The notes: generated by a model not told the origin, from the letters alone. A DNA stretch of 30,196 nt from Candidatus Thorarchaeota archaeon (GCA_048884965.1 JBHLQH010000002.1:67943-98138); one strand, 5' to 3'; shown: positions 10,764-13,366, numbered from the stretch's first letter. Made by a program: numbers and translations.

Positions 10764-11762
10764 ATGGAGGATAGCTGCGATAACAACTTGGAGCAATTGG
10801 GATTTCTCTCACAGAATGGCATGGATTCAAAGACCACGAATCTATTGCAGGCGATACTTCAAGCTCAACGAAACGAAGGCTCTGACTCTACATTCTCGGT
10901 TGTATATGAAACCTATACAGAACTAGAAGGGGGAAAACCAAAGAGTAAGCCCTATGTCCATAGGCTTCTCAACGCATTGATCGATATCCACGTTATTCGC
11001 GTTGAAGGTCTAGAAGGAAGAAAAAGAAAGTACCTTTGCGATATCAATACCTTGGCATCAGGCCTATCATTCTTGAAAGAACAGAGACTCAGCGACTTGG
11101 CAAAAGAGAAGGAGAAGGTGAATGAGAGGACTCAAGAGATAGAGTCTATTGATGCGAATGAACTTGCCACCCAGTTGTATGAGAGGCTAACAGGAGAAAA
11201 GAAGACTCCTACATCTCGATTCCTGAAAGGGCTTGATGAGTTTCAACGGGTGACCAATGAAACAATCTATCATGTTGCGAAAGTGGGCGACATCATTCGA
11301 ACATCAGTTACAGGTATAGAGCGATTCAGTTCAGAGCCTTTTGTGAACGACTTTGCATCACGGGTGCAGCGAGTCATTGTTGCAGCATCAAAGGGAGTGG
11401 ATGTCCGCTATAGTATCCCTCCAGTTGATCTAGGCAATATAAGCCAACTTTGGAAAAGCGAGGAGGGAGTGCAATTCTTTGCAGATCTATCAGAGCTCAT
11501 TGTAAAAGATGAAGGTGAAGGACCAGGTTTCCATTTCCGATTCAATTCAGCGGGTCAGAAAAGCCATCAGTTCGTAAGCCTCAACAATGATATAGTCACA
11601 TTATGGATCTCAGAATATCCACCAACTGCAGCGTGGATCACTAGAGAGTTCAATGCGGACCTAATTGACCACATCATCAATACCTTCGATGAACAATGGA
11701 AACAAGCCTCTTCAGTTCGCGAGCACCTTAGGCAAGTCATGTCGGAGAAAGGAAAAAAGTAG
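10764..11762 (+). CDS. TrmB-like regulator, paralog 1 (wHTH, coiled coil, PLD-like effector domain)
   Basis: SKPYVHRLLNALIDIHVI wHTH with wing Tyr, heptad-rich helix, GDIIR..S, KGVDVR, HQFVSLNND. Confidence 0.7.
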   Translation: MEDSCDNNLEQLGFLSQNGMDSKTTNLLQAILQAQRNEGSDSTFSVVYETYTELEGGKPKSKPYVHRLLNALIDIHVIRVEGLEGRKRKYLCDINTLASGLSFLKEQRLSDLAKEKEKVNERTQEIESIDANELATQLYERLTGEKKTPTSRFLKGLDEFQRVTNETIYHVAKVGDIIRTSVTGIERFSSEPFVNDFASRVQRVIVAASKGVDVRYSIPPVDLGNISQLWKSEEGVQFFADLSELIVKDEGEGPGFHFRFNSAGQKSHQFVSLNNDIVTLWISEYPPTAAWITREFNADLIDHIINTFDEQWKQASSVREHLRQVMSEKGKK

Positions 11763-11900
11763 CCCAACCAATCGCAAGAGTGAAGCGGGGCCTCACCCCC
11801 TAAGACCCTGCTTCGAGTTTGTGCCAGGTCCGAACATGCCCATCTAGCACCCCGCAACGCCGTTGGAGTTTTTAACGTCATAGCGAAGTGAGAACTTCTG
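11760..11900 (-). ncRNA. Candidate structured small RNA 1 (three hairpins)
   Basis: Hairpins 11851-11887, 11821-11850, 11782-11814, mostly G-U compatible on minus strand; TATA-like 11931-11942 upstream; U6 run at 11753-11758. Confidence 0.6.
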
Positions 11901-12094
11901 ACCAAAGCAACCTCTATGTAGTCATACCCGACATATATATGTTAACTCTTTCAACATTCATATAGTTAGTAACACTCTTTATTTAGATGAGAATTTTAGT
12001 GAGCATAGTAATGTAATCAAAATCTCGAGTGATACTAGTCAACTATAGTAAAGCTACTATGTAGATATGTACACTCTATGAAATGGATCAGGAA

Positions 12095-12207
12095 AATGAA
12101 ATCGGGCGGAGATGGGTCCCCCCGCCCTCACCAGCCATTTTCCGCAGCATGCCAGCTTGGCTATGAACGACGGTTCAATCCCGACCTGAATTACCCAGCC
12201 GTTCATC
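12095..12207 (-). ncRNA. Candidate structured small RNA 2 (three hairpins, homologous core to RNA 1)
   Basis: Hairpins 12163-12206, 12133-12162, 12104-12127; TTTATATT box at 12232-12225, ~26 nt upstream; U-rich tail. Confidence 0.6.
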
Positions 12208-12256
12208 TTTTATAGCGAACACGAAATATAAATTCATTCAGTTTTTCAATGTATAT

Positions 12257-12277
12257 GAAGCTAGCTATAGCTACTTC
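12257..12277. promoter_or_regulatory. Palindrome between RNA 2 promoter and paralog 2 (possible operator)
   Basis: GAAG-c-TAGCTATAGCTA-CTTC. Confidence 0.35.
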
Positions 12278-12355
12278 CCTTGAAAATAGCAGAAAGTAGA
12301 AGGTTTTTTATGAGATATCAGTGCCTAGAATCTATCTCAACTGGGGGTTATTGGC

Positions 12356-13366
12356 ATGCTGGATGACATAGATAAAGAAGAACTCGGACTAATTGGCTTC
12401 TTCTATCAAAACGGGTTTGACACCAAGGCAGCATTGCTATTACAATCCATGCTAAAGACCCAGCTTGAAAAAGAAGCATCGCTTTCATTCTCAGAGATCT
12501 ATGATGCATTCTCTAGAGAGAATGAGGGGAGCAAGATATCAAAGGCATGGGTACACAAACTGCTGCGCAGTCTCACAGAGTTGAGGTTGGTTGCCATTGA
12601 GGCGATAACAGCACGACGGAACAATTACAACTGCGATATCAATACTCTCTCAACAGGACTGGGTTTTATGAGAGAACAGGCTCTTCAACATGTCTTACAG
12701 GAGATGAAGGACCTAAAGGCTCGAGATGCGAAGTTGAAGGAATTAGATACAACTTCATTAGCTCAGAAGGTTCATGAATCAATGACAGGGATGAGAAAGC
12801 ATCCTACATCACGCTTCTTGAAGGGACTTGAAGAATTCCACAGAGTGACAGATGAGACCATCTATCAGGCAGCAGGACCAGGAGACATCATTAGAAACTC
12901 TGTTGCGAATGTCGGACCCTTTGTATTAGGATATGCTGATCGGACAAAGAGGCTCTTTACCATGGCTGCGAAAGGCGTTGAGGTCAGATACTCTATCTCG
13001 CCGGAGTCGCTCAAGGAAGAAGGGATTTTTGGTCAGGATATGAACATGGAGTTCATGCAATTCGCACTCAAGATGCTCAAGGGGAGAGGTGAGGAAGGAC
13101 AACCAGGACTTCACGCAAGGATAAATCCAGCAGCATCAAGAGGACACCAGTTTGCGAGTCTGAATAATGAGATCATGGCGTTATGGATTTCTGAATATCC
13201 TCCTACAGCTGCATGGATTACAAGGGATTTCAATGAGGATCTGATCGATGATATCATACGAACCTTCGAAGAACAGTGGGAGAATTCACAGCCTATCAAC
13301 GAAGCATTGGAACAGGTAATCAAAAGTCATGGTATGAAAGGGTCCAAGAATGGTGTAAGGAAATGA
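12356..13366 (+). CDS. TrmB-like regulator, paralog 2 (closest to paralog 1)
   Basis: SKAWVHKLLRSL wHTH; shares TSRFLKGL.EF.RVT.ETIY and LWISEYPPTAAWITR.FN.DLID with paralog 1. Confidence 0.7.
   Translation: MLDDIDKEELGLIGFFYQNGFDTKAALLLQSMLKTQLEKEASLSFSEIYDAFSRENEGSKISKAWVHKLLRSLTELRLVAIEAITARRNNYNCDINTLSTGLGFMREQALQHVLQEMKDLKARDAKLKELDTTSLAQKVHESMTGMRKHPTSRFLKGLEEFHRVTDETIYQAAGPGDIIRNSVANVGPFVLGYADRTKRLFTMAAKGVEVRYSISPESLKEEGIFGQDMNMEFMQFALKMLKGRGEEGQPGLHARINPAASRGHQFASLNNEIMALWISEYPPTAAWITRDFNEDLIDDIIRTFEEQWENSQPINEALEQVIKSHGMKGSKNGVRK

Follow-up and report, generated by a model that had tools for sequence, protein, structure and literature searches.

Two paralogous candidate small RNA genes beside an operon of TrmB-like regulators in a Thorarchaeota genome

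In a 30,196-nt stretch of a Candidatus Thorarchaeota genome (hereafter the window), the gap between two genes for TrmB-like regulators appears to hold two paralogous small non-coding RNA genes, both on the minus strand, each predicted to have its own TATA-type promoter and to end in a hairpin with a U-rich tract. We give this sequence-based reading a probability of about 0.7. The predicted RNAs would measure ~165 nt for element 1 and ~117 nt for element 2. An initial annotation of the window had described two homologous hairpin elements in this gap, and both GC-rich islands lie where it had placed them, with minus-strand hairpins and an alignment of the two central (H2) hairpins that read as it described. 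Almost nothing is known of regulatory RNAs in Asgard archaea, which are mostly uncultured, and a full-text search of the literature found no report of a Thorarchaeota sRNA. The elements represent a candidate new Rfam family and a concrete annotation model. They also offer a testable regulator-RNA pair. Their genomic partner is fixed, an operon of several TrmB-like paralogs next to a lipid-reductase-like gene. On present evidence they have no bearing on eukaryogenesis or on any long-standing question.

The intergenic gap extends for 593 nt from the stop codon (11760-11762) of paralog 1 (10764-11762, plus strand) to the start of paralog 2 (12356-13366), and consists of an AT-rich core flanked by the two GC-rich islands (GC ~0.48 vs 0.38). 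The operon contains four paralogs of ~335 aa each, none of which matched a Pfam or NCBIfam model. The AlphaFold model of a paralog (pLDDT 82) comprises a winged helix, a long coiled coil and a PLD-like domain, and because the top Foldseek matches to this model were TrmBL2 (E 2e-9) and TrmB, the neighbouring paralogs are TrmB-like at the level of the modelled fold. A mechanical gene call also placed a 112-aa minus-strand ORF with a TTG start at 11567-11905, antisense to the end of paralog 1 and running through element 1. This ORF is probably spurious, and it is not conserved, since the same RNA faces a different gene in most relatives. Between the putative TATA box of paralog 2 and the gene itself stand two tandem palindromic TAGCTA hexamers (12259-12274), which are kept in same-genus genomes and form a candidate operator for autoregulation by the TrmB-like proteins.

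Element 1 begins further 5' than initially annotated. Read along the minus strand, it is preceded by a promoter module of the TTACTAAC..ATGAATGTTGAAAG type (11945-11973), which stands before every copy in several genera and which in the window is adjoined by no plus-strand protein gene. The module is followed by a putative TATA box for element 1 (11932-11942), and transcription is predicted to start near 11915; in all genera, an A/T box precedes the first conserved RNA positions by a constant distance. The 5' stem-loop (11877-11902), equivalent to stem-loop SL-a of the family and missing from the initial annotation, has a GUCA/UGAC outer stem around a GAAGU/ACUUC hairpin. It is retained in a contig of genome G061, and its inner hairpin has been swapped for another sequence in G006. 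An unpaired AACUCC motif (11865-11870) precedes the hairpin that stands before the GGGCAUG motif, and it occurs at the matching place in the window's genus, in a second genus and in the largest genus. The H2 hairpin (11821-11850) presents the GGGCAUGUUCGGA motif (11841-11829) in its loop, and H3 (11782-11814) has an 11-bp stem and a G-rich loop. The pyrimidine-rich tail (11751-11781) contains a U6 tract at 11758-11753 and overlaps the stop codon of paralog 1. The three-hairpin layout initially proposed for both elements is accurate for element 2 but not for element 1, in which H1 (11865-11855) is a hairpin of only 4 bp and the helices number four or five. Minus-strand folding gave -44.2 kcal/mol for element 1 and the same figure for element 2, with modest z-scores (-1.5 and -1.9), and the plus-strand folds of the two elements reached -29.6 and -29.9 kcal/mol.

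Element 2 is arranged as a direct, not inverted, repeat of element 1, with which it shares the promoter module and the order of motifs. Its module (12241-12275, minus strand) is positioned back to back with the promoter region of paralog 2, and the ..TATACATTGAAAA.. box and TAGCTA repeats within it are kept in same-genus genomes. A box previously noticed upstream of element 2 was confirmed as TTTATATT at 12232-12225, about 20-25 nt before H1. It would serve as the TATA box for transcription predicted to start near 12207, and equivalent A/T boxes occupy the same place in G004, G005, G006 and G061. The H1 hairpin (12163-12206) is followed by a weak H2 hairpin (12133-12162) whose loop contains the GGCAUGCUGCGGA motif (12153-12141) and whose stem is also weak in relatives. 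A terminator-like scan identified, on the minus strand, the G-run hairpin H3' (12127-12104) with its U-rich tail (12103-12091). Element 2 is found beside element 1 in three genera: the window's own (in four genomes and the G061 contigs), a second and, as a variant, a third. Of these copies, 8/8 maintain one order, from the promoter module through the variable hairpin, the motif and the G-run hairpin to the U tail; a hairpin directly precedes the motif in every one of the eight, and its sequence is of six unrelated kinds. GGCAU(G/C) is kept in the copies of two genera and the third has ACAUGUUC, while in H3' the G-run is kept and the 3' arm differs and compensates in each genome. Matches to the element-2 pattern in a fourth genus were rejected, as they lie inside coding DNA.

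The relatedness of the two elements proposed in the initial annotation is borne out by the shared module and motif order and by the element-1 family model, which recognised element 2 on the same strand, with a weak score of 9.5 bits (E 0.015 in a 601-nt search). From these sequence features, element 2 is read as a diverged tandem duplicate of the RNA together with its promoter, occurring in three genera. Within a G061 contig, a 40-nt stretch of element 2 is letter-identical to the window whereas the adjacent paralog protein is only 52-53% identical, and the identity of this stretch therefore points to strong constraint. G061 was binned as a genome of another genus than the window's. Its contigs C207, C80 and C1 (L056, L067) are short and carry elements 1 and 2 in nearly the window's sequence; they probably derive from a mis-binned close relative of the window's organism and not from that genus.

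BLAST searches of either element against its own genome returned only the self-match. The pattern GGCATG-N2-3-CGGA-N2-3-TGGC was found at exactly two sites in the 4.09-Mb genome, both in this gap and both on the minus strand, as against 0 occurrences of a reversed control pattern. Therefore, the likeness of the two elements, which the initial annotation had recognised, is not a chance one. BLAST also detected element 1 at 76% identity in a same-genus genome, and both elements are present in G004, G005 and G006, the latter two keeping their order and strand. The search was extended to other genera with a covariance model of two sequences (R1), and a refined model (R2) identified element 1 in 53 of the 87 genomes of the order, representing 8 of 17 genera and almost always as a single copy. 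The covariance-model search of Asgard genomes suggested by the initial annotation thus yielded homologues. When R2 was applied to a phylum-wide sample, matches were obtained in 13/26 genomes of the window's family and in 0/124 genomes from 26 other Asgard families. By these model searches and as far as they extend, the element 1 family is limited to one Thorarchaeota family. Within that taxonomic family, nine genera gave no model match; the RNA family is probably wider, judged by sequence, than the eight genera that the model detects. Two loci without a model match, L108 (2960-3090, minus strand) and L109 (2720-2880, minus strand), contain diverged versions that are visible by eye, with GGGCAUGG or GAGCGUGUU, a G-run hairpin and a CU tail.

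The genomic position of element 1 is highly constant. At all loci examined the order is a geranylgeranyl-reductase-like gene, 15-40 nt, element 1, 170-420 nt and one or more TrmB-like paralogs, and element 1 is encoded on the strand opposite to both the reductase-like gene and the TrmB-like operon. A tblastn synteny comparison found this order kept in 45/45 loci (16 + 29, the 29 including reductase-only loci). A search for related loci with paralog 2 as the query gave no match, and the paralog alignment was too diverged for use. Loci were also retrieved via the reductase gene, and R2 matched 26 of 30 of them, always on the opposite strand and 15-40 nt past the reductase stop. The window, G004 and the G061 contigs carry an extra TrmB-like paralog (paralog 1) between the reductase-like gene and element 1, an insertion (window 10764-11762) that is absent from most relatives, G005 and G006 among them. 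Element 1 therefore stays with the regulator side.

The conserved convergent arrangement, with its spacing of 15-40 nt, could also be explained by a minus-strand RNA that acts in cis, as a convergent antisense transcript whose 3' part pairs with the 3' end of the upstream gene's mRNA and controls its stability. The G-loop would then meet a C-loop, and the U tracts do lie at or beyond the neighbour's stop codon, as in the window, where the tail overlaps that of paralog 1. However, the convergent partner is not the same gene throughout, being the reductase in most genomes and a paralog in the window, G004 and G061. Element 2 lacks any convergent gene, and the conserved unpaired motifs of the 5' and middle parts overlap nothing. 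We consider action in cis unlikely and return to the reading of the elements as small RNA genes in their own right.

Across homologues, the family consensus of these RNAs begins in its 5' part with a stem-loop, an unpaired AACUCC(G) and a second stem-loop. The middle part consists of an unpaired ACGGGCAUG.UACAGGGCA region, with two GGGC motifs 12-16 nt apart in several genera, and the 3' part consists of a variable covarying hairpin, H3 with its G-run loop, and the tail. Among the unpaired motifs, GGGCAU(G) is conserved best across the family. In the window's genus this motif lies in a hairpin loop, whereas in most genera it is unpaired between two hairpins, and the H2 stem that the initial annotation had drawn around it is no general feature but peculiar to the window's genus. 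Comparison likewise removed CGGA from the proposed core, as it is not conserved across the family. The self-complementary loops from which kissing dimers had been envisaged are not conserved either, one genus having GGGCAUAG or GGGCAAAG. The H3 stem GAAGCAGGG/CCCUGCUUC is nearly invariant across the eight genera and 96.7% paired; its inner pairs covary (U-A to G-C) and the distance between its arms ranges from 13 to 20 nt among homologues. SL-a, which shows many kinds of base pair, is 89-92% paired.

Two genera possess, 20-45 nt downstream, a C-run complementary to the G-run of the H3 loop. U-to-C and A-to-G changes in the two runs match, so that GGGGGCG occurs with CGCCCCC and GGGGUG with CACCCC (L013, L014, L056 and L059-L064 compared with window 11782-11803). 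Another U tract, longer than the first, often comes after the C-run, and in a third genus the complement is situated upstream. No C-run complementary to the H3 G-run was found in two other genera, and it is absent from the window's copy. Pairing of the two runs may form a pseudoknot or an alternative structure.

Covariation, which the initial annotation had proposed as a test, was measured with a full-length model (R3) on 34 distinct sequences and was found. Across four helices, both partners have changed in 24 of 28 pairs, and 87.7% of cells are paired. Such counts overstate independent events, because each alignment was fitted to its model and the genomes come from related organisms. With the partners slid, paired cells fell to 34-54%. 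The covariation score was 0.268 vs 0.107 in shuffles, none of 500 reaching 0.268, and 0.035-0.076 with the partners slid. In an alignment fitted to the model, the structure of an independent sRNA gene is thus supported by covariation. The well-aligned helices SL-a, SL-b and H3 contain 29 G·U pairs vs 3 A·C, and because of this excess the RNA is assigned to the minus strand of the window. The wobble asymmetry first seen in the two elements, G-U on the minus and A-C on the plus strand, thereby extends to the whole family. Of 39 variable hairpins compared before H3, 28 are stabler on the minus strand and 9 on the plus strand. Whole-region folding z-scores did not separate the strands (-2.4 vs -2.6), and because they are equal on both, the strand call rests on the wobble-pair bias.

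These measurements also bear on whether the elements work as DNA, the inverted repeats being operators for the TrmB-like regulators and the remainder promoter or terminator sequence. The main candidates for such operators would be the invariant H3 arms and a genus-specific GTGGAT..ATCCAC repeat. The adjacent genes encode proteins that by their modelled fold are TrmB/TrmBL2-like DNA binders, the H3 arms are conserved in sequence across eight genera, and in L077 the start of the paralog has a TACT-N8-AGTA palindrome close by. DNA recognition would also fit the 9-bp core of H3, whose near-invariant sequence is unusual for a simple terminator. Yet the arms of H3 are separated by anything from 13 to 20 nt, the spacer between them has a conserved G-run on one strand, and the remaining hairpins stay paired through complete turnover of their sequence. 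A wobble bias of 29 vs 3 towards one strand is not expected of a duplex-DNA site. A TrmB-type operator with fixed spacing was rejected on the variable arm spacing and strand-biased wobble pairs, and function as DNA in general seems to us quite improbable.

An RNA from the plus strand would be either a long structured leader for the TrmB-like operon or the 3' UTR or terminator of whichever gene precedes it, the reductase gene or, in the window, paralog 1. It would agree with the equal folding z-scores and with the location of H3 15-40 nt past the upstream plus-strand stop in nearly all genomes. One genus even has a short U tract after the plus-strand H3. Such tracts are nevertheless missing in most genera, the 29 G·U against 3 A·C favour the minus strand, and no plus-strand gene lies upstream to which element 2 or the duplicated promoter modules could belong. 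In three genomes with an inserted paralog, the element stays on the regulator side, and overall we judge a plus-strand origin very improbable. That the elements are alike by chance, or are a MITE or another decayed repeat or mobile element, is scarcely credible despite folding z-scores of only -1.5 and -1.9, for the genome has two copies and its relatives about one, always at the same syntenic place and with covariation, and the elements match only themselves.

As to the small RNA genes on the minus strand, every copy is preceded on the RNA strand by the conserved module (TTACTAAC..ATGA.TGT..A.A type) and then by a TATA-like box, and by sequence prediction the first conserved RNA positions come 25-35 nt past this box. 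Since the module also precedes copies with no adjacent plus-strand protein gene (element 1 of the window, G005, G006 and L076), it is taken as the element's own promoter and not only that of the regulator operon. Most homologues have CU-rich tails with U4-U7 tracts after H3, which by their sequence would be archaeal terminators. TACT-type half-sites are present in the promoter region shared with the TrmB-like genes. The 5' region of the TrmB-like gene in L077 (G077:C7) includes a perfect palindrome, TACTCAT-TT-ATGAGTA (TACT-N8-AGTA), about 50 nt before the paralog begins, and this palindrome resembles published TrmB operator half-sites.

Searches against known RNA classes agreed with the initial annotation, which had regarded the elements as a minus-strand small-RNA family outside those classes. 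ARAGORN detected no tRNA in the window and none at the locus when the whole genome was scanned with introns allowed. A 7-bp helix in element 1 that resembles an acceptor stem had suggested a tRNA or split tRNA. A cloverleaf fitted by hand lacked both the T arm and the anticodon arm, and G005 does not retain the acceptor-like helix. Rfam 15 gave 0 matches in the window and 0 in seven homologous loci, and a permissive Rfam search of 11600-12400 returned only a spurious microRNA match (E 3.9). Identity with a known Rfam or MITE family, the outcome that the initial annotation had said would speak against a new RNA, found no Rfam match and no repeat-family match. A C/D box sRNA was rejected, as neither window element nor any of the 34 distinct homologues has a C box (RUGAUGA). 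An H/ACA sRNA was rejected because H3 is a continuous 9-11-bp stem without a pocket, followed by three bases that vary (CAC, CGC, CAA, CUU and others).

Candidate functions tied to the neighbouring DNA fared no better. A cis riboswitch or leader was rejected because, on the strand indicated by the wobble-pair bias, the RNA points at the 3' end of a convergent gene and no conserved same-strand ORF follows, a result that upholds the earlier statement that the elements are not 5' UTRs on the minus strand. Translation of a small ORF from the AUG of the motif was dismissed because this AUG is AUA or AAA in one genus and its distance to H3 changes by non-multiples of three. Replication-origin boxes, with G-strings flanking the AT-rich core, were dismissed because no cdc6/orc gene is nearby, most genera have one element, and the two elements of the window are direct repeats.

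Trans-encoded sRNAs of archaea and bacteria are intergenic, have their own promoter, expose a conserved seed and end with a terminal hairpin and a U tract. The elements described here are likewise intergenic and ~110-170 nt long, with a predicted TATA box upstream, hairpins that flank an unpaired motif, and a GC-rich 3' hairpin followed by a U/C-rich tail. Their taxonomic range is narrow and a regulator adjoins them, as with such sRNAs. Unlike ordinary terminator hairpins, the terminal stem of element 1 is invariant in sequence and bears a conserved G-rich loop. Unlike known trans-encoded sRNAs, the elements are known here from sequence alone and have no sequence or structure match in Rfam. 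Protein-titrating sRNAs of the CsrB/RsmZ type contain repeated short motifs. The elements resemble them in having one or two exposed GGGCA motifs between hairpins and in the duplication of the gene in some lineages, and differ in that the family has at most two or three copies of the motif instead of many. We know of no CsrA-like partner in archaea. TrmB-family operators are short promoter DNA sites of fixed spacing, of the TGM-type palindrome in Thermococcales and TACT..AGTA in haloarchaeal TrmB. The shared promoter region has comparable TACT-type half-sites and one TACT-N8-AGTA palindrome, whereas the elements themselves show variable arm spacing, covariation and a wobble strand bias.

In the mechanism we propose, the RNA would be transcribed from the conserved promoter module. 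Control by TrmB-like proteins is probable, because the module has TACT-type half-sites and is placed back to back with the promoter of the regulator operon. The RNA would then act in trans through its conserved exposed parts, namely one or two GGGCA(U) motifs 12-16 nt apart, the AACUCC stretch and the G-run of the terminal hairpin. It could do so by pairing with mRNA, at CU-rich or start-codon regions, or by binding protein, and we rate pairing slightly higher. Conserved motifs that lie exposed between hairpins suit a base-pairing seed, and protein binding would suit the doubled GGGCA motif and an H3 stem of invariant sequence. In the genome, the motif's complement is found as often as expected by chance, and this search revealed no target; duplex energies with the reductase mRNA were no better than those of shuffled seeds. 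A match of the element-2 loop to the start region of paralog 2 was discarded as a target, as it is not kept in G005 or G006. A more specific proposal, which we hold only as a tentative one of low probability, is that the RNA is the dedicated partner of the TrmB-like paralog assembly, whose proteins would bind the H3 stem and G-loop together with the GGGCA motifs. If this is true, the RNA would titrate or switch the transcription factors that govern its own promoter, and the locus would constitute an RNA-controlled TrmB-family regulator circuit specific to Thorarchaeota.

Outside the window, ARAGORN identified ~19 intron-free tRNA genes arranged head to tail in genome G000 (contig C4:160883-163299) and five more packed tRNA genes at C9:108216-108648, while the genome's other tRNAs are scattered and often intron-bearing. 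These arrays could be foreign DNA of bacterial or viral origin, the estimated contamination being 7.2%, or a mobile tRNA array.
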